Counted from the stretch's first letter, positions 14,267 to 52,547 are shown. The stretch is 64,000 bases of DNA from an uncultured virus (IMG/VR IMGVR_UViG_3300028903_000203) (IMGVR_UViG_3300028903_000203), one strand, 5' to 3'. The notes: generated by a model not told the origin, from the sequence alone. A program made the numbers and translations.

Positions 14267-15571
14267 ATGAGCTGCAAGGATGCCTGGGAAAAAGAGGTGG
14301 CGCAGTGGCTGGCGGGGCCGGCGAAAGTGGCCCCCAGTCAGGCCGACGGCGGCCAGCGCTGCACGCACGCTGGTTGTGACGCTCTGGTGAATCAAGCCAC
14401 AGGGGTGTGCGTCAAGGGGCACCGCCAGGGCACGGCGGTGAGCGTGCCCGCCGACGAACAGATGGTGGAGGCCGCGCAGACCGCGTATGATGGCAGCGAG
14501 ATACAGGTGGACGCCGAGGCTACTGTGTCCCGCTCGGACGAGAACGAAGACAAGGGGGCCTATGTAGAGGCGTGGATCAGGTTGGATGCGGAGGAGGTGG
14601 GCGACGCCGACGATGCGGCGCTCATTGCTCTGGCCCAAGAGCAGTATCAGGAGGGGGGCACCCTGGAGATAGATGACGGGGCCGTGGTCACCCGCGACGG
14701 GGAGACGGTTCTGGTGCAAGGCTGGGTCTGGGTTTATGACGATGCGGTCCAGCCGGCGAAGGGAGAAGCGGCCGAGCCGGGGGCGAAGGGCGTGTGTGAC
14801 GGGCTCCTGTGTCTGCTAGGTGAACTCCAAGCGCAGGGGCTGATCGAGCCCGGAGATCGCCCTATCGGGTTAGACGAGCCCGACCGAGCCATCCGCCAGA
14901 TGCTGGATAGCATCGACTGCCGAGTGGGAATAATGGGGAACTATGAGCTGGGCAGGGCCTTGCCCCAGGAGCAGGCAGTAGCGATTTTCGACGACCCGCG
15001 CGTGCTGGCGGCACGCCGTTATCTGGCCGTCCAGTCGGGCTATGCTCCTGCCGAGGCCCCCGCCGCGCTGGCTCGGGAAATCACGGCCATGGTAGACACC
15101 CTGCGGGGGGATGATCCTCGGGAGGGTATCGTATACCGACTGAGTGAGCTATACGATGCGCTGGCTGAGCATGGCTATGGGGATTGGCAGAGCGCCGTGG
15201 GTTACTTGGAGGAAGCGCTCGCCATGGTGGGGCTGCGCGGAGTAGCGGCAGGTCTGTCGTCGGAACCGGCGGAAACGCGCACCCGCGAAACACCCGAACT
15301 GCTGGCTGCTAGCCTTTACCAGGCGCTGCGGGCCGACCGCGACGGCGAGTTCGTGCCGGAGATGCTGGATGGTGCGGCAGCAGTGCTGAGGAATCTGGGG
15401 GAGGAGGAAAGCGACTGGCTGGAGGAAGATGAGGAGACTGGGGCGCGGTTGTGGCGGGCGGTCGGGAACGCCCGGGAGGTAGCGGTCGAGCTGCGTTCCA
15501 TGTATCGGCGGCTGGGCGACCTGGCGGGGGTATCAAATGCACCGGATGAGGCCCGCCGGAGGTCGAGATGA
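14267..15571 (+). CDS. MSC-leader protein with duplicated acidic I.VD..A.V.R...V..W module
   Basis: AAGGAG RBS; MSCKDAWEKEV leader. Confidence 0.85.
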   Translation: MSCKDAWEKEVAQWLAGPAKVAPSQADGGQRCTHAGCDALVNQATGVCVKGHRQGTAVSVPADEQMVEAAQTAYDGSEIQVDAEATVSRSDENEDKGAYVEAWIRLDAEEVGDADDAALIALAQEQYQEGGTLEIDDGAVVTRDGETVLVQGWVWVYDDAVQPAKGEAAEPGAKGVCDGLLCLLGELQAQGLIEPGDRPIGLDEPDRAIRQMLDSIDCRVGIMGNYELGRALPQEQAVAIFDDPRVLAARRYLAVQSGYAPAEAPAALAREITAMVDTLRGDDPREGIVYRLSELYDALAEHGYGDWQSAVGYLEEALAMVGLRGVAAGLSSEPAETRTRETPELLAASLYQALRADRDGEFVPEMLDGAAAVLRNLGEEESDWLEEDEETGARLWRAVGNAREVAVELRSMYRRLGDLAGVSNAPDEARRRSR

Positions 15572-16173
15572 GTTGTAAGAACGAAGCTGAAGCAGAAGGC
15601 AAGGCGCTAGAACCGGCCACCAGGACCACCCTGGCCCAGGCCGACGCCGGCCCGCGCTGCACTCGTGAGGGCTGTACGGCACGGGTCAACCAGGCCACGG
15701 GGCGCTGCACGGCGGGCCATGCCCAGGAGCCAGAGGGGGACGACCTCTTCACCGGAGCCGACCTGCTGTACGCGACGACGCGGGCCTCTCTCCTGGAAGA
15801 CGGCTACCTGATCGATGTGACGGAGCAAGCTCGGGAACAAGGTTTCCGCTGGCCGGTCGCCGTCTCCCGCGCGGTCTGGGATATGGTCAAGGACATTCCC
15901 CCGCCATTTCAGAGAGAGCAAACCGTCGAGGCCCGCTTGCGCGACGTGCTTTTGGTGGCGGCCATACGGGCGCGTATTGCGGTGGGGGCAAAGCAGGAGC
16001 CGCCTTTCTACTACAAGATGACGCTCTATAACTCGGACAGCACCGATTGGGACACGTGGGTAGAGGGCGAGGATAAAAGCGTAGGCAAGGTGGTGCTGAA
16101 GATAACGATAGACTACGCCGCGCCCGACGACCCGCAGCCCTGTTATACCATCTCCTTGCCTGACGAGGACTGA
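15568..16173 (+). CDS. MSC-leader protein with DUF6573-like cargo
   Basis: ATGA overlap; TRASLLEDGYLIDVT..AREQGFRWPVAVSRAVW...RLRDVL...CYTISLPDED matches the DUF6573 pattern as recalled. Confidence 0.8.
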   Translation: MSCKNEAEAEGKALEPATRTTLAQADAGPRCTREGCTARVNQATGRCTAGHAQEPEGDDLFTGADLLYATTRASLLEDGYLIDVTEQAREQGFRWPVAVSRAVWDMVKDIPPPFQREQTVEARLRDVLLVAAIRARIAVGAKQEPPFYYKMTLYNSDSTDWDTWVEGEDKSVGKVVLKITIDYAAPDDPQPCYTISLPDED

Positions 16174-16195
16174 GTACACAGACCGGAGGTTGGCC

Positions 16196-18147: not shown

Positions 18148-18702
18148 ATGCCCAGCCACGTCGACCCTTCCCCCCAGGCTAGTAAGGCCGCGGGTGTAGC
18201 GGCGACCGGGGGCACCACCCTAAACTGTACTGCGGCGCTGCGCGAAGATGGCCGCTGCCCGCCGGGGTGTGCCCGCGCGCACCAGGCAGCTTTCTCGACG
18301 GACGACTGCCCCCGCCGCCAGGTCCAGACCGGAGCGGAGGACGTAGCCGCCTTGTTGGGACAGCAGGGGCTCGCGGTAACGGTGCAGCCCTGGGCCGAGC
18401 GGATAGGCTACGACCCTGCGGTTAGGCGTTACGCCCTGTGGGTACAGATGCAGCCGCACTCAGACGAGGCGGCGGACACCCTGCGGGTGCTGGCCGCCGA
18501 GTGGGAGAGGCAGGACGAGTCGCAGGTCCAAGGGGCCATCTACTGGGGGAGGTCGGCACGGGGAGCCTTGTTCTGCGGCCTGCGGCTCGAACATGCCCGG
18601 TCACTGGGCGCGTGGGCCAGCCGATTGGGAGCAGCGGAGGCCGCAGAGCTGGTCGCCCAAGTACGTCAACGGCGGCCGTGGTTGCTCACCGGCTGCCACT
18701 AG
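18148..18702 (+). CDS. Hypothetical protein lacking the canonical leader (Cys-rich N-terminus)
   Basis: GAGG/GGAG RBS; fills the gap between two array genes. Confidence 0.65.
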   Translation: MPSHVDPSPQASKAAGVAATGGTTLNCTAALREDGRCPPGCARAHQAAFSTDDCPRRQVQTGAEDVAALLGQQGLAVTVQPWAERIGYDPAVRRYALWVQMQPHSDEAADTLRVLAAEWERQDESQVQGAIYWGRSARGALFCGLRLEHARSLGAWASRLGAAEAAELVAQVRQRRPWLLTGCH

Positions 18703-18713: not shown

Positions 18714-19844
18714 GTGTCTTGTAAGGATGAGGCCGAGAACGAGGGAAAGGCCCTTGAAAAGGCCACCAAAACCACGCTGGCCCAGACGGATGCCGCCCGG
18801 CGGTGCATTCTCCCGACGTGCCAGTTGCCGTTGAATGATAAGGGGGGGTGCCCCAAGCATCATCCCCAGGACCCGCAGGAGCTGCGTGCAACGCTTGACT
18901 ATACGTATGCCGACTTGCGACCGGCAGCCGAGGTGTTGCGCTGGGTACGACCGGCGGTTTTCCGGGAAGCCGCCGCGCGGGCGCAGGCGGAAGGTCGGGC
19001 CGAAGATGCCGCGCGCCTCCAGCAACTGGCGGCGCAACGGGAAACTCTGACACCCCAGCAGATCATCGAGCAACGGCCGGACTGGCCGGGATTGGAGGTC
19101 TGGGTCAGTCCCCTGGTACGGGGGCTGCTGGCAGTCCTGCGGCAGCGCGCCGACTCGGAGATCGAAGAAGGCGATGGGCCATGGATGGACATGCGGCCCC
19201 CGGCGCAGCAGGACCGGGAGTTCTACGAGGCGGCCTGGGGCGCTCTCCCCCCGCTCCTGGCCGCGCTGGAGCACGCCGAGCAGGAACAGCGGCGGGTGGT
19301 GGCCGCCCTGCAACGGCTGGCCAAGCCGGCCGCCCCGCCCACGCTCCCACAACTGGGCCGGCGGATGCTGGCGGCGATGACAGACGTGGCCCAGTTTTTA
19401 CAACGGCAAGCTGCGGAAGCCGAGGCTGCCGGCCGGCCCAAAGAGGCGCGGCGGGCCCGGGAACAGGCTGGCTCCGTGCAGAGCGGGGCCCAGAACCTGG
19501 CCCACCAGCTTGCCGGGCCCGAGGAAGAGGAGCAGTGGCTCCGCGCCGCGACCGGCGCGGATGACCCCGGCGCGGATGACCCCGGCGCAGCGGGGCAGTT
19601 GCGAGAACAGGTGGCCACACTCCGCACCGCGCCGGCCCCGGCTCCCGCGCCGGCCCCGGCTCCCGCGCCCGCGCCGATCATCGAGGACCACGGTTTCTTC
19701 CAGCTCGAGGTGGATGAGGCGGCGCGGACGGTGGTGGTCCGGCTCCCGGGCTTTCGTGGACTGAAGTTTATCACCGGCGACATGGATCGCGCTATGGAAC
19801 GGGCACTGGCGGCCTATAAGGAGCGCGGGTTCCGGCAAGTGTAA
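18714..19844 (+). CDS. MSC-leader protein (GTG start), helical cargo with (AP)n linker
   Basis: AGGAGG at 18701; GTG TCT TGT AAG GAT = (M)SCKDEAENEG. Confidence 0.8.
   Translation: MSCKDEAENEGKALEKATKTTLAQTDAARRCILPTCQLPLNDKGGCPKHHPQDPQELRATLDYTYADLRPAAEVLRWVRPAVFREAAARAQAEGRAEDAARLQQLAAQRETLTPQQIIEQRPDWPGLEVWVSPLVRGLLAVLRQRADSEIEEGDGPWMDMRPPAQQDREFYEAAWGALPPLLAALEHAEQEQRRVVAALQRLAKPAAPPTLPQLGRRMLAAMTDVAQFLQRQAAEAEAAGRPKEARRAREQAGSVQSGAQNLAHQLAGPEEEEQWLRAATGADDPGADDPGAAGQLREQVATLRTAPAPAPAPAPAPAPAPIIEDHGFFQLEVDEAARTVVVRLPGFRGLKFITGDMDRAMERALAAYKERGFRQV
19554..19676 (+). repeat. In-frame short tandem repeats (15-bp x2 = GADDP; 18-bp x2 = APAPAP)
   Basis: GGCGCGGATGACCCC x2 at 19554; GCGCCGGCCCCGGCTCCC x2 at 19629. 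Confidence 0.8.
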
Positions 19845-23208: not shown

Positions 23209-23225
23209 TCCCAGCGAGCTGACGG

Positions 23226-24491
23226 ATGCCCTTGCGTGCGGTGGTAGATGGTCGTAACATAGTCGCCCCCTTCCTTTCCGACGAGGAGTGGCAAGAGCTG
23301 CGGCAGGCTGTCCAGGCCGGCCAGAAAGCCGTGGTCTTGCCCTGCTGCCAGGTCCCCGGCTTCCTGCGGGTCAGCCACCGGGGCACCCGGCACTTTGTCC
23401 ACAAACGGCGGGGCACGTGTTCTTGGGGGCCAGAGTCAGAGGACCATCTCCGGTTGAAGGAGGTCGTCGCACAAGCCGCGCGGGCGGCCGGCTGGGAGGT
23501 AACGACCGAGGCGGCCGGAGATGGCTGGGAAGCCGACGTGCTGGCCGAGCGCCCCGGCGGGCAATCTTCCCTGCGGGTAGCGTTTGAGGTCCAGTTGAGT
23601 CGTCAGACGCTGGAGACTACTTTGGCCCGGCAGGAGCGTTACCGCCGCAGTGGAGTGCGCGGGTGCTGGTTCTTTGCGCACCTGCCCCCACAACTGGACG
23701 GAACGGCGCGGCAAGACCTGCCGGCCTTTCGGATCAATCGCCAAGACCCCCTGTTGGTATTTCCCCACAGCGATAGTACCTACGCCCGGGTCGGCGGAAC
23801 ATGGAGCCCGCCTCCCGGACAGCCCTTGGCGCAATTCGTAGGCCGGTTGCTGGATCGGCAGGTGCAGTTCTGCACCGAAGCGGTGCGCCAACAGGAACTG
23901 GTGCTGGTTCTCCGGGGAACGGAGATACCGTGCCCGCACTGTGGGCAGATGACCACCGTGGGGCAAGTGCACCTCGAGCTGCGCCAGCAGTCGTGCTGTG
24001 GGCTGCCTCCCAGTAGATTGGCGATCCATTGTGGGTATCGGTGGGAACTCATGCGGCGGCCGGAGCTGGCTCAGGAGTTACCGCCGACGTTCATAAGCGC
24101 CTGCGGTGGCGGGATCGGTGACCACCCGTGCACCAGCGCACCAGACATTCCGTGCTGCTCGTTTGCCTGTCGGGCGTGCGGGCAAACCATTTGCTGGAGT
24201 GTGGTGGAACAGGTGCTGCGGTCCCGCATTGCCAGCTACCCCAGTGGCAGCTCGATTAGGACCGAGGAACGCGCGGAATACGTAGTGGCGCGCGAGTGGG
24301 TGCGGGAGAAGAAGCCCCATTGGTGTGGGCCGCTGACGGGGCTACCGTGTAATGCGGAGCGGCCGGCCCCGCAGGAGCTGCTGCCGCGGCTGCGACAGGC
24401 TATCGGGGACTATCTGCGCCCCGCCGTTCCGGCGTGCCCCCACATCGGCCGGCTACAAGCCCTCCGGCGGCAAGGGCGGCCCTCCTTCTAG
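23226..24491 (+). CDS. Competence CoiA-like PD-(D/E)xK nuclease family protein
   Basis: LPCC...HFVH...C...PESEDHLRLK...GWEV..E...ADVLA...VAFEVQLS.Q...RQERY...GVRGCWF. Confidence 0.8.
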   Translation: MPLRAVVDGRNIVAPFLSDEEWQELRQAVQAGQKAVVLPCCQVPGFLRVSHRGTRHFVHKRRGTCSWGPESEDHLRLKEVVAQAARAAGWEVTTEAAGDGWEADVLAERPGGQSSLRVAFEVQLSRQTLETTLARQERYRRSGVRGCWFFAHLPPQLDGTARQDLPAFRINRQDPLLVFPHSDSTYARVGGTWSPPPGQPLAQFVGRLLDRQVQFCTEAVRQQELVLVLRGTEIPCPHCGQMTTVGQVHLELRQQSCCGLPPSRLAIHCGYRWELMRRPELAQELPPTFISACGGGIGDHPCTSAPDIPCCSFACRACGQTICWSVVEQVLRSRIASYPSGSSIRTEERAEYVVAREWVREKKPHWCGPLTGLPCNAERPAPQELLPRLRQAIGDYLRPAVPACPHIGRLQALRRQGRPSF

Positions 24492-24817
24492 CCAGCGGCG
24501 ACTTGCTTCCAGGAGGCCAGCGTCGCTACACCCATGCCTAAACAGGGCACCCCCAAGAGCACGGCGAGGTAAGAACTGGGGGAGAAATAGAGGGCCAGGG
24601 CGATGGGCAGCCCACCAAAAGAGACGGCCAGTGTCCACCACCGCCGCGGTTCCCGCTCCGCCGGTCCCCAGCGTTGGCAGAAAGGCCCACTGCTCTCGCC
24701 CAGCAGCAGCAAGGTGACAAACAGCACGAGCAGAGTGTACCACACGGCGGTGTAGCTGAGGAGCAGGTACGCCAGGAGGGGGGACAAGACGGCAGTGGGG
24801 GTAAGCATCAGCACCAC
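24488..24817 (-). CDS. Small multi-pass membrane protein
   Basis: About four hydrophobic segments; lies downstream of the recombinase; exact start uncertain. Confidence 0.5.
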   Translation of the reverse strand: MVLMLTPTAVLSPLLAYLLLSYTAVWYTLLVLFVTLLLLGESSGPFCQRWGPAEREPRRWWTLAVSFGGLPIALALYFSPSSYLAVLLGVPCLGMGVATLASWKQVAAG

Positions 24818-24831
24818 GCTCCAGTCACGGT

Positions 24832-24859
24832 TGCTTTACTGCGAAATCCAACTAAAGCA
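24832..24859 (+). repeat. 28-bp dif-like site, copy B (overlaps recombinase stop codon)
   Basis: TGCTTTACTGC-GAAATC-CAACTAAAGCA with terminal 7-bp inverted repeats. Confidence 0.75.
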
Positions 24860-25994
24860 TTTCAGCGGCGTCCTCATCATCCGCCTCCTCCGGCCAAGAG
24901 TCTCCGGGAAGCGCGCCCGCCTGTTCGTGAAAAGCGGCGGGCGTGGCGGGGGGGACGGGTTCCGCCCCATCAAAGATGCGCGCGTGCTCGCGCTGCAAAT
25001 CCTCTAGGGCCACCTGGGCATAACGCCGGGTCGTATCCGCGCTCTGGTGCCCCAGGGCATCTTGGACCAGCGCCAGATTGCCGGAGAGCCGCAAGAGCAC
25101 TGTGGCATAGTAGTGGCGAAGCTGGTGCGGGGTGAGGCGGGCCAGTCCTGCTTGCGCGGCTAGGTCACGAAAAGTGCGTTGGATGGAGCGGGAAGTGATG
25201 GGCTGCACGCCGGGCTCTTTCTGCTGGGGGTTGTGACGGGCAAAGACCGGCGTCTCGGGTTGGTTCCGACCGTGGTCGCGTACTTGGAGATACTCTTGCA
25301 GTGAATCCCAGGCCCGGAGAGAAAAGAGAACTACCCGGTGTTTCTTGCCCTTGCCCTGGATTTCCGCGCCATGCTGTTCCGCCAGTAAATCGGCATAGCG
25401 CAGCGCGGTCAGCTCGGCCACTCGCAGGCCGGAGGTCATCAGGCATTCGACGATGGCCCGGTCCCGCAGCCAGACCAGGTGCCGGCGCTGTTCTGTTTCC
25501 GGCGTGACGGCGCTCCCCGCAGGCAGCGGTGGTAGCGGCGTGCGCACAACGACCAGTAGCCGCTCTACCGCGTCCTCGGAAGGCAGCCGTTTCAAGAGGA
25601 TATGGTCTTCGGCCTTGGCGGCTGCGTACATGCGCTTGCGTACCCGGTAGTAGTTGTCCATGGTGACATTGGGCACCCACCCTCCTTCCCCGACCACATA
25701 GGCGTACCAACTGAGGACGCCGGTGAGATAGGTGCGCAAGGTGGCGGGGTTCACCTCCCGGGCCGGGTTCTTGCTGCGCTTCTGGATCGTGCGCTGGAGC
25801 CAGGCGGGAAAGGGCAGCAACCAGTCGGTGAGGACCTCGCTGACCGGGGTAGCGCCGGTGACATGGTGGCGATTCTCCAGGTAGGTGACAAAGTAGCGCA
25901 GCCCGACCCGGTAGGTTGCGGCAGTTTGGGGACTGGCCACGTGCATCAGATCGAGAAACTCCGTCATCGTCACGTCAATCGTTGGTGTAGCCAT
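24852..25994 (-). CDS. Tyrosine recombinase/integrase (XerC/D-like)
   Basis: GAGGT RBS before MATPTIDV; RDRAI...SGLRVAEL (R), GKGKKHR (K), TPHQLRH (HxxR), LGH, TTRRY (Y); N-terminal core-binding domain. Confidence 0.93.
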   Translation of the reverse strand: MATPTIDVTMTEFLDLMHVASPQTAATYRVGLRYFVTYLENRHHVTGATPVSEVLTDWLLPFPAWLQRTIQKRSKNPAREVNPATLRTYLTGVLSWYAYVVGEGGWVPNVTMDNYYRVRKRMYAAAKAEDHILLKRLPSEDAVERLLVVVRTPLPPLPAGSAVTPETEQRRHLVWLRDRAIVECLMTSGLRVAELTALRYADLLAEQHGAEIQGKGKKHRVVLFSLRAWDSLQEYLQVRDHGRNQPETPVFARHNPQQKEPGVQPITSRSIQRTFRDLAAQAGLARLTPHQLRHYYATVLLRLSGNLALVQDALGHQSADTTRRYAQVALEDLQREHARIFDGAEPVPPATPAAFHEQAGALPGDSWPEEADDEDAAEML

Positions 25995-26085
25995 AGATAC
26001 CTCACGGCAGGGCACGTAAGCGGCGGTCGATAACTGTTCCCACCTATTATAATACACGAATGCCCCGGCCTGGTAGTGCCGGCGC

Positions 26086-26138
26086 TGCGCCATAATTGCG
26101 CCATAATTGCGCTATAACTATTATAGCGCAATTATGGC
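26086..26138. promoter_or_regulatory. Perfect 18-bp inverted repeat plus 11-bp direct repeats upstream of the recombinase (putative recombinase binding/res site)
   Basis: GCCATAATTGCGCTATAA-cta-TTATAGCGCAATTATGGC (26100-26138), preceded by tandem TGCGCCATAAT. Confidence 0.65.
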
Positions 26139-26157
26139 ACTATTTTGTCATCTCGAC

Positions 26158-26186
26158 TTGACAAAAGCACTACAATGTAGTATACT
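26158..26186 (+). promoter_or_regulatory. Sigma70 promoter TTGACA-N17-TATACT
   Basis: Near-consensus hexamers; the -35 is overlapped by the palindrome TTTTGTCA-N8-TGACAAAA (26143-26166). Confidence 0.75.
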
Positions 26187-26304
26187 TGTCAGTGCCAGGA
26201 TAAAGATAGTATCTTCAAGCTGGCAATAGACGGATGCGGGCAGCCGGGTGGAGAAACTTGTTGGCCGGGCTGCGTTTCCTTCGAGATAAACGAGGAGGCT
26301 TTCT

Positions 26305-26586
26305 GTGAAGGTAGTAACGACCATCATCGTCATCATCGCCGGCTTAGTGCTCGTAGCTCTGACCATCGACCTGGAAGGCGTGTTCGTGCGCCTCGACCGG
26401 GGCGATACGGGCCATATCTGCGGCCCCATCGGGCTCATCTGCGTGGATCAGGCCGAGCCGTGGCGGCAGCAGAACGTGCTCCCCGCTCGCAATGGTGGTG
26501 CCGCCCTGTTTCCGGCGAGCAACGGGCTGTTCCCGCTCCTGCGGGGGGCGGGGGAAGTCGGCGGGGTGGAGTCCTGCGGGGGGTAA
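26305..26586 (+). CDS. Small protein with N-terminal signal/TM segment
   Basis: GAGGAGG RBS, GTG start, hydrophobic N-terminus. Confidence 0.55.
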   Translation: MKVVTTIIVIIAGLVLVALTIDLEGVFVRLDRGDTGHICGPIGLICVDQAEPWRQQNVLPARNGGAALFPASNGLFPLLRGAGEVGGVESCGG

Positions 26587-26590
26587 CCCG

Positions 26591-27205
26591 ATGAGTGTGC
26601 TGTTGGTGCTCGTCACCCTGCTTGGACTGGTGCTGCCTGCGCCTACGGCGGTCCCGACCGTGCAGGGCGATATGAGTTGGTACGACCCGCCTAACTCGGT
26701 GTACGATGTGACGTGGCAGCACGTCATTGACCGGCACACGGAATGGGGCAACCTGCATGGACTGTCCGGCAACCTGCCGGGGAACCCCTACTGCGCGATG
26801 ACCGACCTGCCCATGGGCGCGTTGGTGGAAATCGAGTGGCACGGTATCAAGACCCGGTGCTACGTGGCTGACTACGGCCCGGAGAAGGCCGTTTTTCCGA
26901 ACCGCGTGGTTGACGCCAGCGTGGAAGTCTTTGAGCATTTCGCCGCCCGAGACGCGGGTGTGCTGTCCAACGTCACGGTGCGCTTGATTGACGCCACCTA
27001 CTGCGGGCCGGCCCCGCGGGTAGTAACCCCAGCTACAGTGGCACGATCCACGCCCGATCCTGCATTGGAGCGGCTGCGGCTGCTGGACAGCAGGGAGGAA
27101 GGGGCGGTGGTCGCGCGGCGACCCGTACACCGCGTAGCGGCACCTGCGCCACCGGCCTACTGGCCGGGGCCCGGCATGGGTCGCTGCCTTTGCTGGCCCA
27201 TCTAG
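26591..27205 (+). CDS. Secreted RlpA-like double-psi beta-barrel (lytic transglycosylase-like) protein
   Basis: Signal peptide; G..SWY...CAM..LPMG..VEI...V.DYGP...R.VD.S...F pattern. Confidence 0.7.
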   Translation: MSVLLVLVTLLGLVLPAPTAVPTVQGDMSWYDPPNSVYDVTWQHVIDRHTEWGNLHGLSGNLPGNPYCAMTDLPMGALVEIEWHGIKTRCYVADYGPEKAVFPNRVVDASVEVFEHFAARDAGVLSNVTVRLIDATYCGPAPRVVTPATVARSTPDPALERLRLLDSREEGAVVARRPVHRVAAPAPPAYWPGPGMGRCLCWPI

Positions 27206-33522: not shown

Positions 33523-33978
33523 ATGAGCTGTAAGGGCGAGGCGGAAGAACAAGCGCGGGCGTTGGCCCCGGTGACGAGAATAGCCCCGGCCCAGGTGGAT
33601 GGGGCGGGGCATGGCCCACCTGCGGCAGCCCCTAGTGCGTCCAGCGACGTGCCGGTGCAGAGCTTCGACGAGTTCTGCGTGGCGCGGGGGGTGCCGAGTA
33701 GTCCCCCCAGTGATGAGTCCCTCCACCGGGGCAGCCACCACGTGTCGGGGGTGCAGCAAAAGCGGGCCTGGGCGCGGGCAGACCGGGATGGGCGAGAGTG
33801 GGCGGCCCGCCGGGCGGCGCTCTACCAGGAGTGGCAACATCTTGCCGCCCGGGGCCAGGTGCGCGAGCCCACCTATGAGGAGCGCCTCATCCGGACGGCC
33901 CAGGGGCACGAGGACAATGAATCTACTCAGGCGGCCCGGCGGGTACTTGCCAAGCGGGGCATCACATGGAACTGCTAA
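33523..33978 (+). CDS. MSC-leader protein lacking the leader Zn finger
   Basis: MSCKGEAEEQ...AQVDGA is followed directly by a low-complexity linker and cargo. Confidence 0.8.
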   Translation: MSCKGEAEEQARALAPVTRIAPAQVDGAGHGPPAAAPSASSDVPVQSFDEFCVARGVPSSPPSDESLHRGSHHVSGVQQKRAWARADRDGREWAARRAALYQEWQHLAARGQVREPTYEERLIRTAQGHEDNESTQAARRVLAKRGITWNC

Positions 33979-40744: not shown

Positions 40745-40755
40745 GAGGAGGAACG

Positions 40756-43415: not shown

Positions 43416-43424
43416 GAGGTGGGA

Positions 43425-45080: not shown

Positions 45081-45108
45081 TGGATTGGTTGGATTTCGCA
45101 CTAAAGCA
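45081..45108 (-). repeat. 28-bp dif-like site, copy C
   Basis: + strand TGGATTGGTTG-GATTTC-GCACTAAAGCA, 25/28 identical to copy A; starts immediately after a stop codon. Confidence 0.7.
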
Positions 45109-45134
45109 TGGCAGCGAGGTGCAGGAGGTGCAGG

Positions 45135-47018
45135 ATGAGCTGTAAAGATGAAGCGGAAAGAGAAGGGGCCGCGTTGCAGGGACAGACCCGCACGGCGCTG
45201 GCGCAGGCCGATGCGGCGCAGCGCTGCATCCGGCCAGGCTGCGAACAACCCATCGCGCGGGGCGGAACTGTGTGCGGTTGTGGTCACCCCCAGGGACTCG
45301 CCGCGGTTGAACAAGGCCGGGGCCAGCGCGAGCGCGGGAAGTTATTGCTCGCGGCTATCCCCACCTTGGGGGCAGAGGATGTGCCGGCGGCGCTGGACTT
45401 GGCTTTGAGCCTGGGGCAACCGCAGCGGGCACTGCGGGCACTGCGGCGGCGCTTTCCGCATGCTTATGGCGACTATATGCAGGAGCAGGCTTTGCAGCTC
45501 TGTCGGCGGGAAACGGGGGACTATGGGCTACAACGGTTGGCCCCCTATCTGCCCCCGGATGCTTTGCATACGGCGGTGGAGGCTAGCGGCAAGTACAGCG
45601 GCACGCTGTCCCTGCCGAAGGCCCTGAAGATATTGGCTCCGTACCTGGTCGGCGACTTGCAGGACGTCGTGGTAGCTCGGATAGTGACGTATGCGGCTCC
45701 CGCGCGCCAGCCCCAGCCCGAGGAAAGTCCAGCCTACACGGAGTGGGGCGCACAGTTGCGCACGTTCACCGAGCAAACGACGGCGCTCGCGGCTTTAGGG
45801 CCTCATTTGGAAGGACGCCGGATGAGGGCGGCCCTGGCGATCCTGACGCGCCGGCCCCCGGATGTTCCGCGTGGCCTGACGGCAGCCGAGCACACAGTGG
45901 TCTCATCCCAAGGAACGAGCTACTGGGAACATCGCCGGCTATGGGATGCGGGCTCCTTCTTGGCTCGTGCGGGGAGCCAGATGCCCGCAGAGTGGGTGCC
46001 GCGGGCGATACAACTAGCCAGCGAGGTGCTACGCTACAACCGCAATACCGGCATGGGCTACCCGGGGGGTGGGGCGGGGCTGTTTCTGCACACGCTGGCT
46101 CAACGGCCGGAGTTGCACGAAACCATCCTGGCGGTCTTGCCGCAGAGTGATCTCGGAGACGACACTTGCGGCGGGGTATTGAAAGCAATGGCCCCGTGCC
46201 TGGAGAATGATGCTACATGGGTGGCGGCCCATACGGTGGCCCTGGCGCTGACCCCAGCGGCGGCCGCCCAAGCGCGGGTCGCCTTGGCCGAGCATGTGCC
46301 GCCATCTTGTCTGACGGCCGCACTTCAGGAAGTTGCGTCCGTCAATCCGCCGCAGCAAGAAGCGTACCTGGCCGCGCTGGCCCGGCGTACCGACTCCGGG
46401 CTGCAAGGCGAGATGGTCAAGGTCAGTGGGCAGTTGGCCGCGGCACCCCGGGCCACGTTCCTGGCGGAGTTGGCCCGCCTGGGAGTGGAGTCCCGCACTA
46501 GGACCAGGCTCATCCAGGTGGCCCGGCAACTGCCAGCCGGGGGGCAAGTCAAAGTTTATGCTGCGCTCGGTCCCCGCTTGCCGGCGGCGGAATACCCGGC
46601 CGCGCTGGCACAGGTGCAGGAGGCGGGAGCCCGGGGCGACGAGTTGGATGCCGCCAACAGCCTCCTGGAAAGTGTGCTGCCCCAGCTTCCCCCCGCGCAG
46701 TATGAACAGGCCCTGGCCGCGGTCGAGGCGGTTGCCGAGGCTCCCCTCTGGCGCTCCACCCCGGAACAACAGACCCGGGCGGTAGCGGCCTTGCTGCCGC
46801 TAGCCGGCCGCTTGCCGGAGGGGTTGACCGGACGGGCGCTCAACCTGGTGAACCGGCTGCCGCCCCGGCAACAGGGCCAGTTACTCCTGGCGCTGGCCCC
46901 GCGCCTGTCTTCGGCCGCGCGGGCGCAGGCCAGTACCGGGGTGCCCCGGATGGCGCTGGCGGAGCAAGAGCCGGCGCTGTTGGCCGCTGTGCTGGCGGCG
47001 CTCCGCGTCGAGCCGTAG
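45135..47018 (+). CDS. MSC-leader protein with alpha-solenoid repeats (related to 41283)
   Basis: AGGAGG RBS; MSCKDEAERE leader; helical repeats. Confidence 0.85.
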   Translation: MSCKDEAEREGAALQGQTRTALAQADAAQRCIRPGCEQPIARGGTVCGCGHPQGLAAVEQGRGQRERGKLLLAAIPTLGAEDVPAALDLALSLGQPQRALRALRRRFPHAYGDYMQEQALQLCRRETGDYGLQRLAPYLPPDALHTAVEASGKYSGTLSLPKALKILAPYLVGDLQDVVVARIVTYAAPARQPQPEESPAYTEWGAQLRTFTEQTTALAALGPHLEGRRMRAALAILTRRPPDVPRGLTAAEHTVVSSQGTSYWEHRRLWDAGSFLARAGSQMPAEWVPRAIQLASEVLRYNRNTGMGYPGGGAGLFLHTLAQRPELHETILAVLPQSDLGDDTCGGVLKAMAPCLENDATWVAAHTVALALTPAAAAQARVALAEHVPPSCLTAALQEVASVNPPQQEAYLAALARRTDSGLQGEMVKVSGQLAAAPRATFLAELARLGVESRTRTRLIQVARQLPAGGQVKVYAALGPRLPAAEYPAALAQVQEAGARGDELDAANSLLESVLPQLPPAQYEQALAAVEAVAEAPLWRSTPEQQTRAVAALLPLAGRLPEGLTGRALNLVNRLPPRQQGQLLLALAPRLSSAARAQASTGVPRMALAEQEPALLAAVLAALRVEP

Positions 47019-47093
47019 CGAGCAGGGTGGTTTCGGGTATTATAAAGAGTAGAGCCAGGTGGCTCACCGCAGGTAATGTGCAGGAGGGCAACG

Positions 47094-48599
47094 ATGAGCT
47101 GTACGGGCGAGAAGAAAGCGCAAGCTGAAGTACTGGCTCGCGCCTCCCGGATCGCCGGGAGCCAGGTCAACGGGGCGCTGTACTGTTTGTATCCGGGCTG
47201 CGGCCAGTCCCTGATGACAAACCAGGACTGCCCTCGTGGGCATAGCCAACATCCGGGAGACGTGGCGCAATCCCTCGTGGCGGCGGCCCATAACTTACAG
47301 GGGGCCTGGGCCGGCAGCTCCTCCCGCGCCCCGGAGCGACAGACCGACTTGCGGCAGGCTCGCCAGTATGCGGAACTGGCCTGGGCGGTCTACGGCACGC
47401 ATGGGGACGGAGCACAGGCTACGGCAACATCGGCGCTGGTGGCCCGATTGTGGGAGGAGGAAGAACGCGCGGGCGGGGGCCGGATGCTGGTGTCGCTGCC
47501 GGACCGCCGCCGCGCCTTGGAACTGCTCAAAGAACCGCGCCTGCGCCAGCGATTAGCCCGCGCCGACCAGATGTATCTGCAAGGCCATCCCAGCGGGGTA
47601 GAAGTGGTCTACCGCAAAGGGCAGCGGGTCTACAGTCTGAACCTCGCCAAAGTGCCGTCGGGCCGGCTGGGGGGTGGGGAATATACCTGGTTGGTGAGCC
47701 CCTTCCGCCCCGTGGCAATAGGGCGACAGGAGGCGGTCGCATGGATGGACCGCATGACGGAGGTGGTAGCAGAGGGGGGAACACTCCTCTGTCAGAACTG
47801 TGGCGCGGCCCAGGTGGGCTACGACTGCCCGGATTGCGCCCAGCGGCGGCGCGAGATTGGCGTCAAGTTGGACGCCCTGCCCGCAGGCACGGTCATCGAG
47901 GTGCCGGCACAGCTCGTCCGGAACTTGCCCAATTCCAAGTATCTCCGGGGGCGTTGGCAGGCGGTGGACTCCGGGGAGGGGCGGGTCTGGGCCGCCGTGG
48001 GCGACAATGCCGACGACGCACTGCGGGGCACAGGGGTTTTTGGCTATCTCACCGATGAACTAATCGACGCGGAAAGGGCGGTGGCGGTGGTCGGTCAGTC
48101 GGAAGAGCTGCCGGCGCGAGCGGCCCAGCATCTCTACCTGGGCGTGGTCAACCAACAATTGCCGCGCCTCTTGGGTACACGCATCGGTGCGGATCGCGGC
48201 GCGCAGCACTATGCTAACGCGCTGTTCCGGGCTATGTTCGATGGCAAGAAGCCGCGCTACATCCAGACCTTGGCGGCGAGCCTGTCCCGGCGGCTGCGTC
48301 AGGCCCGGCAGACGTTGGAGAACACCCCAGAGTGTCCAAAGTATGCCGCCGAACAGCAGCACCGGCTTACGCTGGTGCGGCAGGCGGAAACGACGATGAC
48401 GGCTGTGATGCAGGCTTGGCAGGCGGGACGGGTGGAGCCCGCCCGGAAGGGGCTGGATGCGGTGTACCAGATGACCCGCTGGGCCAATGCCCGAGGAAGT
48501 AACTTGGCGCAGTGGGCCACCGGGCCAGATGACCTGGCAAAAGCACTGCGGGGCGAAGCGCCATTTCCCGGCGTTCCCGCAGAGGACAATGCGCAATAG
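47094..48599 (+). CDS. MSC-leader protein with C4 Zn finger; partly related to 52797
   Basis: AGGAGG RBS; MSCTGEKKAQ; LP.G.V..V...LRG.W.AV....GRVW shared with 52797. Confidence 0.85.
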   Translation: MSCTGEKKAQAEVLARASRIAGSQVNGALYCLYPGCGQSLMTNQDCPRGHSQHPGDVAQSLVAAAHNLQGAWAGSSSRAPERQTDLRQARQYAELAWAVYGTHGDGAQATATSALVARLWEEEERAGGGRMLVSLPDRRRALELLKEPRLRQRLARADQMYLQGHPSGVEVVYRKGQRVYSLNLAKVPSGRLGGGEYTWLVSPFRPVAIGRQEAVAWMDRMTEVVAEGGTLLCQNCGAAQVGYDCPDCAQRRREIGVKLDALPAGTVIEVPAQLVRNLPNSKYLRGRWQAVDSGEGRVWAAVGDNADDALRGTGVFGYLTDELIDAERAVAVVGQSEELPARAAQHLYLGVVNQQLPRLLGTRIGADRGAQHYANALFRAMFDGKKPRYIQTLAASLSRRLRQARQTLENTPECPKYAAEQQHRLTLVRQAETTMTAVMQAWQAGRVEPARKGLDAVYQMTRWANARGSNLAQWATGPDDLAKALRGEAPFPGVPAEDNAQ

Positions 48600-48613
48600 A
48601 TAGGAGGTTGGCG

Positions 48614-50623
48614 ATGTCGTGTCGGGGTGATTGGGGAAAGTATGCCAGTGATTTGGAAATCGTAGCACGCACGGCGGCTCCGGCGGTAGATGGCCGGCCC
48701 CGCTGCGTTGTGCAGACCTGCAACCTGCCGCTGCTCAATGGGGACAAGTGCGTGCGGGGTCATCCCCAGGGAGCGGGGGAGGAAACGGGGGTAACTGTCC
48801 CCGTCGAGGTCGGGCAGGCCCTGCTGTGCCTACTCAAAGAGTTGCCGCAGGACTCGTTCATGGATATGGTCAATGACCCCCGCTACCTACAGTTGCGCTA
48901 CGCGCTGGCGCAGGCCGAAGGGCGGCTGGGCTCGACCTGGGTGCTCGTCGAGAACGGGGAACCCAAGCGGATTATTGCTGGCAAGTCGGAAGCGCAAGCG
49001 CGGCATGGGGCGCTGGAACAGGTCAGGCTGCCGTTTGAGGTAGTGCCTCTGGAACAGTATGCGCGGGAGACGGTAGCGCCCGAGCTCTTGGGGGAGGATG
49101 CGCCCTTGGCGGCCGTGCGCGGCCTGGTCGAGATGCTCACGGGAAACCATGCCCCGGAGGGCGCGGTGGCCCTACACGGCGACCCCCGCCTGCGGGCCGC
49201 GCAAGCCCTGGTGCGGGCCGCAGGGCGCGGTCCACGTGACCCCGTGGCCCCGGTCGTGGATCGCTTGCGGGACGGCGGCTTTCTCGCCTACGGCCGGCTG
49301 AAGACCCCGGTCGGCCAAGCCGACACCTACCGCTTCTGGGCCGGGGTGCTAGAGGAAACGGCCGAGGCGATGACCATAGCGCCGAGCGATGCCTGGGTGA
49401 CGACGCTGTTGGATGTCCGGCCCGGCGGCACGGCGAACTTTGTGATTATCGCTGGGCAAGGCGATGAACCCGAGGCGGTCCTGGTGCGGGATGATTTGCC
49501 AACGACGGACGGACTCACCCTCCCCGGCACGCTAACGGTGGCCACCGACGTGCGCGAGCGGGCCCAGCGGGCCCTGCACCAGTATCGCGCGGGCCGGGCA
49601 GACCGGGAGGAAAGGCGGGAGTTGGTGACCCGCGCGGCCTCGTTGGAGGAGGCGCTGCGCGATGTTCTGGCGACGCACGACCAGGGGCTGAGCTTAGCGG
49701 TTGACCAAGGGTTCATGCCGGAGGCAGCGTATAAGGCCGCGGTAAAGGCGGCGGAGCGGGCCAAGAGCCTGCTCGGCGACCGCGGCTGGCGCAAGGTGCC
49801 CACACTCAAAGAGCGGCTCGCGGCCCGCCGCTTGGAGGTCACTCCGGCAGAGCTGGCGCAGTTGGAGGTGATGGTGGAGGATTCGGTCGCCCGCTGTCGG
49901 CAGATTGCCGACTTGCATACGCAGTGGAGGTCGCAGGCACAAGACCCGTCTGGATGGGTTGACAAGTTGCTCCAGGTGCCGCCGTCCACCGAAGAACGTG
50001 CCCTGCGGCGCACGGGGCAGGACTGGGAAGAGATGCGGGACATCACCGAGCAGGTCCGGTTGGCGGTGGGGGTAGAAGTGGGGCCGCTCTATCCAGAGGC
50101 CCGCTATGCCAGTTGGGGGGCATCGGCACACCTGGAGGTCCTGTGGGAGGCGGTCCGCCGCGACAGCAAGCGGTTCCCGACCGCGCTCTTGCGTGAGCGG
50201 GCCGTGGTGGCCGGGCTGCGGCCGGAGCTGGCCGAGCATGCCAACCGCAAGGAGCTGGCCGAATGGGGCGCGCGGCGGGATGGAGCCGCCGCGCACATGC
50301 TGGTGCAGGCCATTCTGAACCATCGGCCTCCTACCATGACTGCGGCGGGCCGCGATGGGATCGCCCGCACCTGGCGGGCCAACCAACGAGTGCAGGTGGT
50401 GACCCCAGAGGGCACGTATGTCGGCCGGGTGGAGCACTGTGGCTTGCGGGGGGTGGACTCCGCCGGGCAAACGGTCGATGGTTACCGGATGGACCGGGCG
50501 CAGGCCGCGACGGTGCAGGTGCAGCCGGTCCTTTGGGTGCGCGTGGATAGTTGGCCAGATTCCATGCGCGCGGTGCGCCCCTTCCCCATCGCTGCGGCGG
50601 TCCCGGAGAGCACCATCAAGTAG
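48614..50623 (+). CDS. MSC-leader multidomain protein with C-terminal SH3/KOW-like domain
   Basis: AGGAGG RBS; MSCRGDWGKY leader (closest to 16196); FP..LLRE.A..AGL.P.LA.HA. Confidence 0.85.
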   Translation: MSCRGDWGKYASDLEIVARTAAPAVDGRPRCVVQTCNLPLLNGDKCVRGHPQGAGEETGVTVPVEVGQALLCLLKELPQDSFMDMVNDPRYLQLRYALAQAEGRLGSTWVLVENGEPKRIIAGKSEAQARHGALEQVRLPFEVVPLEQYARETVAPELLGEDAPLAAVRGLVEMLTGNHAPEGAVALHGDPRLRAAQALVRAAGRGPRDPVAPVVDRLRDGGFLAYGRLKTPVGQADTYRFWAGVLEETAEAMTIAPSDAWVTTLLDVRPGGTANFVIIAGQGDEPEAVLVRDDLPTTDGLTLPGTLTVATDVRERAQRALHQYRAGRADREERRELVTRAASLEEALRDVLATHDQGLSLAVDQGFMPEAAYKAAVKAAERAKSLLGDRGWRKVPTLKERLAARRLEVTPAELAQLEVMVEDSVARCRQIADLHTQWRSQAQDPSGWVDKLLQVPPSTEERALRRTGQDWEEMRDITEQVRLAVGVEVGPLYPEARYASWGASAHLEVLWEAVRRDSKRFPTALLRERAVVAGLRPELAEHANRKELAEWGARRDGAAAHMLVQAILNHRPPTMTAAGRDGIARTWRANQRVQVVTPEGTYVGRVEHCGLRGVDSAGQTVDGYRMDRAQAATVQVQPVLWVRVDSWPDSMRAVRPFPIAAAVPESTIK

Positions 50624-50632: not shown

Positions 50633-51580
50633 ATGACGTGCCGGGGGGAACATGCCAAACAAGCAGAGCTGCTGGCCCGCGCCTCGCGGATCGCCGGTGG
50701 GCAGGTCAATGGGGCGACGTTTTGTGCCCAGGAAGGCTGTGGCGCACCGTTGAATCGGGAGGGGGCCTGTGTGCGTCCCCATGCCCCAGCACCGCCGGCC
50801 CCCAACAGTAGCTCATCCGGCAGCGGCACCCCCGACTTTGCCACCATTGTGCGCACGAGCGCGACCGGCCCGGTGCAACGCTTGGACCAAGGAAAGGCCA
50901 GCGCGGAGGTCGTGTCCTACGTGGGTGATGGGCGCGGGGTGCGCAAGCCGCTACAATCCGCGCAGGATGAGGTGACGGGCAGGTATCACCATGACGGTAA
51001 CAGTGAGGTGGCAGCGTATCGTCTGGGACGACTACTGGGAGTTGAGATTGTCCCGGACACGGTATTTGACGGCGATGGCAGCCGCACCACGCAGCGTTTT
51101 ATAGAGAATGGTGTTCTAGGATCGCGGGCGTCTCCGCGCAGCCAGCGGCAGGTGCTCCACAAACAGGAGGAGCGGCTGTACGCGCTGTTGGCGTTGGATA
51201 TTATTCTAGGTAACCCTGACCGTCACCTGGGCAACTACATCTATGATGAGCGGGGCCATGTTTGGGCCATTGACCACGGCCATAGCACTTGGCTCCCGTT
51301 TGGCGAACCGCCCTTGGGCGTGCTTCCCTTGGCGCATAGCTATCCGTTGCTACACTTCCTGGGTTTAGCTCCGCCGCCGGAAGACTCTGGCGGCCAAGCC
51401 CTGGTGCCGCATGGCGCGCTGCGCTTTCCACCGGACCTGGTGGCCCGCTGGTCCTGCATTACGCATGACCAGTTCACGGCGGCGTTTCAAGGGATAGCCC
51501 AAACCGGGCGAGTGCGGTTGGAGAACGGCTGGCGCAACCTGCGCTATATCGTAGAACATCGCGGGATTATCACCTGGTGA
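50633..51580 (+). CDS. Leader (MTC) protein with PI3/PI4-kinase/HipA-like kinase domain
   Basis: VRKP...SEVAAYRLGRLLG...VPDTV...Q.F...LDIILGNPDRHLGN...VWAIDHG. Confidence 0.85.
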   Translation: MTCRGEHAKQAELLARASRIAGGQVNGATFCAQEGCGAPLNREGACVRPHAPAPPAPNSSSSGSGTPDFATIVRTSATGPVQRLDQGKASAEVVSYVGDGRGVRKPLQSAQDEVTGRYHHDGNSEVAAYRLGRLLGVEIVPDTVFDGDGSRTTQRFIENGVLGSRASPRSQRQVLHKQEERLYALLALDIILGNPDRHLGNYIYDERGHVWAIDHGHSTWLPFGEPPLGVLPLAHSYPLLHFLGLAPPPEDSGGQALVPHGALRFPPDLVARWSCITHDQFTAAFQGIAQTGRVRLENGWRNLRYIVEHRGIITW

Positions 51581-51590
51581 GGTTATACCG

Positions 51591-52547
51591 ATGAGCTGCA
51601 CGGGGGAACGCAATCGCCAAGCCCGGTGCTTGGCAAGCGAGGCCAAAGTGGCTCCCGGGCAGATCGACGCCGGTGAGCGTTGCCCGGCCTGCTCCACCGT
51701 GCTGACGCTGGGGCATCTCTGTCCCCAGTGCACCGGCGGGGCGGGCGTATTCCGCTTTCCACCCCCCGCCGGGGAAACCGCCGGAGAAACCCAGGAGTTT
51801 GCCCAAGCTGTGCGGCGGGGCCCGGCGGGGCCCCCAACACCGCTCGCCGCCGGCATGACCGGGGCGCAGATCGTCGCCTACATAGATGATGGACGGGGAG
51901 TACGGAAACCCCGGCGCGCGGCCTATTGTGACCCGGACGACCCCAACCGTTACCTGCACGACGGCGACAGCGAAGTGGTGGCGTGCCACCTGGCTGGCTT
52001 ACTGGGCTTGCAGGTTGTGCCAGAGACAGTGTACGAAGGGGCGGGCGAAACCACCACCCAGCGTTTCGTGGAAGATGGACAAGTGTTGGCAGTCGCGGTG
52101 GGGAAGCGGGGGGCGGCGGCTATCCAGGCGTTGCTGGCCCAGCAGGAAGAGAGGGTCTGGACCTTACTGGCCTTAGACCTTATCACGGGCAACAACGACC
52201 GCAATCCGGCTAATGTGGTGTTCGACCCCCAGGGCCAGGTCTGGGCCGTAGACCATGGCAACTGCACCTGGCAACGCTTTGGACCGGGGGATGCGGCGCG
52301 GCCCCTGGCGTGGAATTACCTGCTGATGTACTTTCAGGGGCGGTCGCCGGACCCCCGCCAGTTTGTCGAGGTGCCCCATGGCCGGGTCGTATTTCCCCCG
52401 GCTATGGTGGAACGTTGGCGACAGGTGACAGCCGCGCAATTTCAGGCGGCGTTTGCGGGGGTGGCCGCTGACAGCCATGTGCGGCCCGCTGCCGCGTGGC
52501 AGAATCTCCAAGACATCGTAGCACGGAACGGGGTTGTGCAGTGGTAG
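51591..52547 (+). CDS. MSC-leader protein with PI3/PI4-kinase/HipA-like kinase domain (paralog of 50633)
   Basis: SEVVACHLAGLLG...VPETV...LDLITGNNDRNPAN...VWAVDHG. Confidence 0.85.
   Translation: MSCTGERNRQARCLASEAKVAPGQIDAGERCPACSTVLTLGHLCPQCTGGAGVFRFPPPAGETAGETQEFAQAVRRGPAGPPTPLAAGMTGAQIVAYIDDGRGVRKPRRAAYCDPDDPNRYLHDGDSEVVACHLAGLLGLQVVPETVYEGAGETTTQRFVEDGQVLAVAVGKRGAAAIQALLAQQEERVWTLLALDLITGNNDRNPANVVFDPQGQVWAVDHGNCTWQRFGPGDAARPLAWNYLLMYFQGRSPDPRQFVEVPHGRVVFPPAMVERWRQVTAAQFQAAFAGVAADSHVRPAAAWQNLQDIVARNGVVQW

Follow-up and report, generated by a model that had tools for sequence, protein, structure and literature searches.

A shared N-terminal Cys/His leader on an array of modular proteins, some with polyvalent-type cargoes, in activated-sludge DNA

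The 64,000-nucleotide stretch IMGVR_UViG_3300028903_000203, listed in IMG/VR as an uncultured virus and called the window here when its full length is meant, encodes a long array of proteins that carry one and the same leader of about 55 residues at their N terminus, followed by diverse modular cargoes. A common terminal tag on unrelated cargoes usually signals a single handling machine, such as a secretion system, a capsid-packaging apparatus or an adaptor hub. The tag described here found no match in the libraries searched and is extremely rare, and the gene set it marks is unusually large and densely packed. We tentatively favor the reading that it serves for docking and labels a split arsenal akin to polyvalent proteins, whose members it would pass to a transfer or packaging machine. 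Genes are named below by their first coordinate in the window, and members of the family lying wholly or partly outside it by P numbers.

A conserved leader heading an array of genes

Searching with a profile derived from the leaders of the window itself, we obtained 37 N-terminal copies (E 1e-12 to 4e-29), spread from 4394 to 63776 and every one on the + strand; the minus strand yielded none. They correspond to 35 complete genes, one gene cut off by the window end and the truncated fragment 33523. The original prediction had placed a shared leader on the genes between 15568 and 52547, a range that holds 21 intact leader genes and the fragment; the leader stands far above chance, and the array proved larger than proposed, extending from 4394 to the window end. 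A GGAGG-type ribosome-binding site precedes the start of each leader gene by 6-9 nt. The genes are operon-like, tightly packed and abutting, with several stop and start codons overlapping, and the array is interrupted three times, by an islet at 23226-27205, by the 176-aa gene 40756 and by an uncertain open reading frame (ORF) at 18148. Such operon-like arrays, with one terminator before the first gene and a strictly N-terminal, invariant M-S/T-C start, could be expected of a common regulatory or turnover tag, through which one factor would hold, activate or degrade all members, for instance to clear them on schedule once a leading region has been expressed early. There is no sign of a protease or chaperone that would serve the tag, however, and a folded zinc module would be more elaborate than known degrons, so that this explanation seems quite improbable.

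The leader consists of Cys3, a predicted helix and then a C-x4-C-x10/11-C-x3-H knuckle. In an alignment of 36 leaders, M1, C3, L15, C32, C37 and C48 are invariant, while S2, Q25 and H52 are nearly so. Synonymous sites are saturated between copies (mean pS 0.69, mean pN 0.39, the proportions of synonymous and nonsynonymous differences) and the invariant residues use mixed codons: Cys3 is TGC in 18 copies and TGT in 18, Ser2 is drawn from both AGY and TCN, and Leu15 uses six codons. Selection therefore acts on the leader protein. The leader is old and kept by protein-level selection, and it is neither a DNA repeat nor the product of recent gene conversion. Knuckle-only copies also occur inside two cargoes, at 5342-5416 in 4394 (E 6e-5) and at 59433-59513 in 58962 (E 2e-5).

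Polymorphic toxin systems are reportedly laid out in arrays of genes that have an N-terminal domain in common and differ at the C-terminus; on that model the leader would serve in trafficking, as an export domain, and the cargoes would be toxins against competitors. Against this, homologous recombination at the leader DNA cannot have exchanged cassettes, given the synonymous saturation; no toxin family was found in the 35 complete window proteins or in 68 members from outside the window; the genes abut or overlap without small immunity genes between them, 40756-41286 excepted; and the window has no signal peptide or secretion-system gene. We consider a toxin system highly improbable. An integron cassette array was likewise rejected: the recombinase in the islet is Xer-like, reaches 55.6 bits with the integron model against a cut-off of 265 and sits inside the array, and there is no room for attC sites because the leader genes overlap.

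Searched against 1.84 billion representative proteins, the leader profile gave 107 matches, comprising 99 leader carriers and 8 unrelated proteins with repeated knuckles. The leader begins at residue 1 or 2 in 97 of the 99 carriers, 30 of which the window encodes exactly. A further clade of leaders, with an MTC or MNC start, has the same Cys/His pattern. We looked up 21 members not encoded in the window: 14 share the 449,756-bp metagenomic contig of the window proteins, and the remaining seven lie on contigs of 8 to 34 kb, two of them together on one of 34,010 bp. At least 50 leader genes are thus present on the 449,756-bp contig, since the window genes and these 14 further members map there.

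In an AlphaFold model of the leader the knuckle is confident (predicted local distance difference test, pLDDT, ~89) and the helix (residues 3-19) has low confidence (pLDDT 54-65). The leader matches no family in Pfam, PHROG, NCBIfam or PADLOC. No PDB entry matches the leader by sequence, Foldseek against the PDB returned only generic zinc-finger rows (E ~7), and a wide VIA-align search gave no fold with Z>=2. We found no description of such a tag in the open-access literature, supplements aside.

The knuckle might itself be a nucleic-acid address, binding DNA or RNA and thereby directing the members to transcripts, the nucleoid or DNA on its way in or out; such a role would be compatible with delivery, as a form of hitch-hiking on transferred DNA. 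The only matches of the leader profile outside the family are the repeated CCCH knuckles mentioned above, five of the eight matching Pfam Zf_WRKY19, and several cargoes described below would handle DNA (ArdC-N, an ATP-dependent ligase, a ComM-like module) or show weak SAP-like and Tudor-like matches (domain X). Yet the Zf_WRKY19 profile (PF24906) matches 0 of 36 leaders at E<=10, the leaders show no consistent basic character (net charge from -5 to +7, mean +0.8), neither structural search found a match for the leader, and a single small knuckle seldom binds nucleic acid specifically. On balance we find a nucleic-acid address unlikely.

Cargo domains and their modular organization

Pfam finds no family at E<=0.01 in 28 of the 35 complete window proteins, three proteins score above a curated cut-off, and 56 of the 68 outside members have no family either. 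PHROG matches 4 of the 35. The cargo domains that the original prediction had called by eye fared unevenly in searches with profile hidden Markov models, some being recovered and others not. The ArdC-N domain with a zincin called in 39578 was confirmed: ArdcN (PF08401; E 7.4e-10, 39.5 bits against a cut-off of 22.6) covers residues 92-205 and an HEWAH motif lies at residue 294, with a weak Peptidase_M78 match below cut-off (E 0.004). Relatives of this cargo occur in 1466 plasmid records, 782 of them conjugative, and in 9 phage records, those on plasmids being annotated as ArdC-like or ImmA/IrrE. Judged from its domains, 39578 would resemble the anti-restriction protein ArdC in joining a single-stranded DNA (ssDNA)-binding ArdC-N domain to a C-terminal HExxH metallopeptidase; it differs in its additional N-terminal leader, and its identity to plasmid ArdC-like proteins is only 25-33%.

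The DUF6573 cargo named for 15568 is also real by Pfam, with 166 plasmid records (129 conjugative) and a weak DUF6573 match in P0094. SWIM fingers had been seen in four proteins. That assignment holds for 16196 (PF04434, E 1.1e-8, 34.8 bits against a cut-off of 19.6; five CxCxnCxH motifs), while 21871, 27367 and 28901 each have one CxCxnCxH motif but gave no Pfam SWIM match, E 0.73 and E 0.043, respectively. Kinase-like domains were confirmed in 50633 (PI3_PI4_kinase 5.3e-6, 27.0 bits with a cut-off of 27.1; TIGR03843 1.9e-10) and in 51591 (TIGR03843 1.1e-9); both carry a DRHxxN/DRNxxN loop, and P0093 is PI3/4-kinase-like as well. The third kinase-like call, 6682, keeps a lead from the protein Atlas (feature score 0.90; structural TM against Pkinase clusters 0.47-0.63, depending on the row) but has no Pfam match even at E 5; its nearest Atlas clusters are "protein kinase" clusters of ~174 aa from Bacteroidota and one 97% viral cluster. 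The papain-like triad read in the same protein found no match, and DUF7007 in 19863 is not significant (E 0.13), a sub-threshold TPR_12 match (4.4e-4) appearing instead.

Beyond these calls, the Atlas offers an alpha-solenoid as a lead for the cargo of 41283, whose nearest clusters are from Actinomycetota and Chloroflexota (score 0.87). The 68 outside members include one GNAT protein (P0055), one ATP-dependent DNA ligase, two Mg-chelatase/ComM-like proteins, three HEAT proteins and one HAD-like protein. Searches of the PDB with phmmer gave no match for the cargoes of 4394, 41283, 6682 and 50633, that of 4394 being without a match in Pfam and in phages (tblastn) too, and word-based homologue searches found none for domain X or the 41283 cargo. 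Cargoes are acidic on average, with 56493 (net charge -44) and 14267 (-43) as extremes at ~20% Asp+Glu; we take their acidity to be reminiscent of DNA-mimic anti-restriction proteins.

An all-against-all comparison of the cargoes revealed four tandem paralogue pairs. The other cargoes form a mosaic of family-specific modules, in varied orders and reused across both leader clades, and a second conserved module directly follows the leader in ~27 of 102 members. P0076 (1004 aa) strings together modules that occur singly in 54334, 60971, 56493 and 58962. Cargo modules thus turn up alone in some genes and joined together in larger proteins, which fits a picture of the same parts being either split or concatenated. 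By sequence comparison, most of the modules appear to have no relatives outside the leader family.

One of these modules, domain X, occupies ~130 C-terminal residues in 12 members. The model of its copy in 48614 (pLDDT 83) predicts a five-helix bundle followed by a five-strand Tudor/SH3-like barrel. For the helical half, the best alignments are with Death-fold domains, led by the NOD1 CARD (Z 6.9), and at least 33 of the 50 listed matches are CARD, Pyrin, DED or Death domains by title; the barrel gives a weak Tudor-like alignment, and there is a weak SAP-like match (Z 5.3). The Death-fold and Tudor likenesses are leads only, since all scores lie below the tool's caution bar (Z 8). Pfam finds no Death-like family in the members with domain X, and Foldseek returned nothing at E<=0.001 from the PDB or the viral library.

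These features would suit a different role for the leader, that of a hub adaptor acting in the producing cell, where it would dock variable recognition or effector modules onto one machine (a signalling complex or a protease) after the fashion of effector-associated domains (EADs), F-box or PRANC proteins. Such a hub would belong to a conflict or immunity system of the host, probably a filamentous multicellular bacterium. EADs are small, non-enzymatic terminal adaptors that occur with diverse partners and have expanded in particular lineages, chiefly of multicellular bacteria (Kaur, 2020; PMC7159879), and bacterial Death-like domains have been treated as well (Kaur et al., 2021; PMC8195603). 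The leader fits the EAD rule as a small non-catalytic terminal domain with many partners, and domain X may have a Death-like fold. Binding modules abound among the cargoes (HEAT in three proteins, TPR, SWIM, the putative alpha-solenoid of 41283), the contig is large, a candidate defense gene of the HEC-07 type adjoins the array, and the nearest Atlas clusters of 41283 offer a lead to Actinomycetota and Chloroflexota.

F-box and poxvirus PRANC proteins likewise combine a small docking box with variable binding repeats in large tandem families. The analogy is one of logic only: the leader has no known sequence or fold similarity to them, and ubiquitin-like machinery is not in view. As for EADs, no leader was found on a core component (VMAP, iSTAND, GAP1 or another NTPase); the carriers detected among the 1.84 billion representatives all have it N-terminally on cargo proteins. 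A Walker A motif is absent from all 104 leader proteins, no STAND, vWA or MoxR family is present among the 35 window and 68 outside members, and the ComM-like matches in P0067 and P0097 start at profile position 148-152 of 207. The effectors usually associated with EADs are peptidases, nucleases and TIR domains, and no family of that type matched in the same two sets. ArdC-N and DUF6573 are moreover plasmid-type functions, and the Death-fold scores of domain X stay under the caution bar without a Death-like Pfam family to back them. Finally, at least 50 copies in long tight arrays on one contig are unlike the EAD distributions described, among them EAD1, with 19 paralogues in each of two cyanobacterial genomes (Kaur, 2020; PMC7159879). 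We regard a hub adaptor as possible, if somewhat doubtful, and as almost equal in probability to the reading that we prefer.

A proposed split arsenal and its possible delivery

We prefer to see the tagged proteins as a split arsenal because the cargoes that could be identified lean to the polyvalent-protein repertoire of plasmids and phages (PMC5512222). Each module or small combination of modules would have its own gene, in place of one giant polypeptide. The pool would be of conflict type, with an ArdC-like ssDNA binder plus zincin, DUF6573, truncated kinase-like domains, GNAT, DNA ligase, ComM-like, SWIM and HEAT/TPR modules. The leader, with an N-terminal helix bearing the invariant Cys3 and then the CCCH knuckle, would act as a small zinc-stabilized docking ("address") tag, providing a single binding partner for dozens of modular proteins that are otherwise unrelated. 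We infer a shared partner because one protein-selected N-terminal module on dozens of unrelated proteins has that meaning in known biology. As that partner we prefer the machinery by which the large replicon bearing the arrays would transfer or package its DNA; the cargoes would then enter a new cell along with the DNA and act there on defenses and DNA metabolism. That they act inside a cell is suggested by the needs of the enzymes for ATP or acetyl-CoA and of the zinc fingers for a reducing cytoplasm.

Polyvalent proteins of phages and conjugative elements combine 2 to 15 domains per polypeptide, kinase, GNAT and zincin being named among them; truncated stand-alone kinases are also described, as are loci in which smaller genes for polyvalent domains cluster near a large polyvalent gene (Iyer, 2017; PMC5512222). 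The array overlaps with this domain pool (ArdC-N, a zincin-like metallopeptidase, GNAT and the truncated kinase lead) and shares the free recombination of modules. It departs from it in that most modules here are separate genes with their own start, P0076 being the nearest multi-module case, and most are unique to the family. The text of PMC5512222 does not describe the leader and does not contain the term "zinc ribbon". Polyvalent proteins sit on phages, prophages or conjugative elements according to that source; the 64 kb analyzed here, a part of the 449,756-bp contig, contain no hallmark gene of these.

The internal proteins of T4-type phages offer a second precedent: a diverse counter-defense set that shares only a conserved N-terminal targeting sequence and is fated for encapsidation and injection (PMC3012670). 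The likeness of a conserved N-terminal tag on diverse cargo is one of architecture only. The leader is a putative zinc module of 55 residues on at least 50 genes, with no head genes in the window and no evident cleavage site. The T4 tag, by contrast, is a short cleaved peptide on a few genes of a phage genome.

A broader reading, which we put forward as a possibility and with corresponding caution, makes the leader a previously undescribed address tag that would commit some 50 to 80 modular proteins, encoded by arrays of at least 60 kb on a single giant replicon from an uncultivated organism of activated sludge, to one machinery, either for delivery with DNA or for docking to a hub in the manner of F-box or PRANC proteins. 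The pool would then hold dozens of new conflict modules, a Death-fold-like plus Tudor-like one among them. The remaining probability goes to explanations other than those considered here.

Several observations weigh against delivery of a polyvalent-type arsenal by a mobile element. The original prediction had assigned the cargoes to such an arsenal, and its two best-identified cargoes, 39578 and 15568, do have many plasmid relatives; on the other hand, the window lacks transfer and virion genes (no relaxase, type IV secretion system, capsid, portal or terminase within the 64 kb in Pfam, PHROG and NCBIfam scans), and a tblastn search of 72,556 plasmids did not find the leader. Scans of GTDB species genomes with two pattern sets gave no confirmed leader, and pattern scans of IMG/VR, including one for P0033, gave a single junction contig; being pattern-based, both scans could miss divergent copies. 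The conflict flavor rests on a minority of cargoes, because most of those in and outside the window are without a Pfam family. For 16196, tblastn found no match in plasmids, the only collection searched for this cargo, and for 50633, 6682 and 4394 none in phages, again the only collection used in such searches for each. A candidate defense gene, HEC-07, flanks the array. Known signals of type IV secretion systems are C-terminal, and known capsid-targeting tags are short and cleaved. The source label "gem" is attached to P0067, an outside member encoded on the 449,756-bp contig, and we take it to denote a catalogue of metagenome-assembled genomes; if so, the contig may be binned with a cellular genome.

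The junction contig does not rescue a phage origin. In this IMG/VR contig (L001, 1-7565), the first 132 nt of leader gene P0033, of the 66% GC type, adjoin a siphovirus-type tail module that includes a head-tail joining protein and a tape measure (2.8e-49). The tail proteins occur on contigs of at most 18,166 bp and not on the one of 449,756 bp, the GC content of L001 is 57.2% against 66.4%, and its tetranucleotide correlation is 0.46, against 0.82-0.91 for pieces of the window. A distant relative of the tape measure (L006) is without a leader gene. L001 is probably a prophage or an assembly junction beside another array and does not speak for the arrays being phage genes.

A metagenome scan for the leader returned only one contig, of 2667 bp, with a leader-like start. 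Near-identical DNA was found in activated-sludge and anaerobic-digester runs from 2016 to 2022, in eight runs from eight studies, two of them possible sources. Over 30001-50000, exact-match contigs come from sludge and digester DNA runs of different years, the sequence being nearly invariant across samples. Two metatranscriptome runs also contain short contigs that match exactly, each run in 16 of the 30 bins over this interval; we do not claim transcription from them, because DNA carry-over is possible and a silent control stretch was lacking.

The logic of a shared tag with variable conflict cargo is known; what is new is the tag itself, the scale and tightness of the array, and most of the modules. 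Whatever the mechanism, the locus shows domains of polyvalent type organized as individually tagged genes instead of giant fusions. Under the broader reading, the leader would be a portable tag whose partner defines a new system. Should that partner be found, it would reveal either a new route of protein entry for mobile DNA or a new adaptor-based conflict system, and the cargoes would become a catalogue of candidate counter-defense or defense modules, most of them now without relatives.

Gene inventory and flanking features

Table 1. Leader genes and other features of the window, by position. Leaders were assigned with the profile built from the window's own leaders; aa, amino acids.
Feature	Coordinates	Strand	Remarks
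Partial ORF, 489 aa	2-1471		Upstream of HEC-07 homologue
HEC-07 homologue, leaderless flanking gene	1672..3408	+	Full-length; PADLOC PDLC04161 3.4e-117; directly upstream of array
Strong intrinsic-terminator-like hairpin	4261..4287	+	12-bp stem and T run; closes upstream unit, ~100 nt before first leader gene
Leader gene 1, 763 aa	4394..6685	+	Leader E 5e-26; phrog_4046 2e-6; second knuckle 5342-5416
Leader gene, 529 aa	6682..8271	+	Residues ~245-529 kinase-like (lead only); cargo 55% identical to P0065, P0105
Leader gene, 466 aa	8268..9668	+	Tandem paralogue of 9677; cargo identity 47%
Leader gene, 440 aa	9677..10999	+	Tandem paralogue of 8268
Leader gene, 608 aa	11108..12934	+	
Leader gene, 426 aa	12956..14236	+	
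Leader gene, 434 aa	14267..15571	+	Very acidic cargo, net -43, 20% D+E
Leader gene, 201 aa	15568..16173	+	DUF6573 cargo, Pfam 3e-10
Leader gene, 646 aa	16196..18136	+	Five SWIM-type zinc fingers; phrog_17897 1e-6
Leader gene, 376 aa, GTG start	18714..19844	+	
Leader gene, 660 aa	19863..21845	+	Weak TPR
Leader gene, 445 aa	21871..23208	+	Single SWIM-like motif
Leaderless islet, ~4 kb	23226..27205	mixed	421-aa protein (+), tyrosine recombinase 24852-26093 (-), 237-aa protein (+)
Leader gene, 492 aa	27367..28845	+	Tandem paralogue of 28901; single SWIM-like motif
Leader gene, 495 aa	28901..30388	+	Tandem paralogue of 27367; single SWIM-like motif
Leader gene, 548 aa	30405..32051	+	
Leader gene, 475 aa	32093..33520	+	
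Truncated, decayed leader gene	33523..33978	+	First 29 leader positions only; knuckle lost
Leader gene, 253 aa	33988..34749	+	
Leader gene, 423 aa	34765..36036	+	
Leader gene, 589 aa	36033..37802	+	Paralogue of 37792; domain X 37290-37727
Leader gene, 598 aa	37792..39588	+	Paralogue of 36033; domain X 39079-39471
Leader gene, 388 aa	39578..40744	+	ArdC-N ssDNA-binding domain and HExxH metallopeptidase
Gene without leader, 176 aa	40756..41286	+	Inside array; no family in Pfam, PHROG, NCBIfam, PADLOC
Leader gene, 710 aa	41283..43415	+	Alpha-solenoid (HEAT/TPR-like), lead only; 28% identical to P0085 over full cargo
Leader gene, 551 aa	43425..45080	+	Domain X 44607-45044
Leader gene, 627 aa	45135..47018	+	Distant likeness to 41283
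Leader gene, 501 aa	47094..48599	+	
Leader gene, 669 aa	48614..50623	+	Domain X 50096-50551 (copy used for model)
Leader gene, 315 aa	50633..51580	+	PI3/4-kinase-like, DRHLGN loop
Leader gene, 318 aa	51591..52547	+	Paralogue of 50633
Leader gene, 483 aa	52797..54248	+	
Leader gene, 720 aa	54334..56496	+	C-terminal module common to 58962 and P0073
Leader gene, 407 aa	56493..57716	+	Post-leader module; very acidic cargo, net -44
Leader gene, 348 aa	57779..58825	+	
Leader gene, 670 aa	58962..60974	+	Post-leader module; extra knuckle 59433-59513; residues 160-282 module 73% identical to P0076
Leader gene, 544 aa	60971..62605	+	
Leader gene, 365 aa	62665..63762	+	
Leader gene running off window end	63776..64000	+	Same as P0012, 730 aa; array continues past window

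The window has a GC content of 66% and a monotonic GC skew, and its long ORFs are nearly all on the + strand. It contains no tRNA gene and no Rfam family. The first 14 residues of fragment 33523 are identical to those of gene 34765, which suggests that the fragment is a partial duplication. The ORF at 18148-18702 is without a leader start; a knuckle-like stretch (C...DGRCPPGC...H) is visible by eye, and it may be a degenerate member or perhaps a non-gene.

Within the islet, the recombinase matches Phage_integrase (2.5e-30) and is Xer-like, and the 421-aa protein has a weak CoiA-nuclease match. An AT-rich inverted repeat of 27 nt lies at the recombinase start (26091-26147). Direct repeats flanking the islet were not found, nor was any repeat family within 22800-27500.

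Upstream of the array, HEC-07 is a candidate defense protein with a RelE-like RNase C-terminus (bioRxiv 10.1101/2024.01.29.577857); the homologue in the window gave only partial, proteobacterial matches in tblastn searches of plasmids. Two small ORFs, 3530-3728 and 3928-4178, lie between this gene and the array, one of them hydrophobic and membrane-like, the other of 83 aa, helical-looking and with its own GGAGG site. Between the partial ORF at 2-1471 and the HEC-07 homologue, a perfect 12/12 sigma-70 consensus (TTGACA, 17 nt, TATAAT) is found on the minus strand at 1538-1566, pointing leftwards, which is unexpected given the 66% GC.

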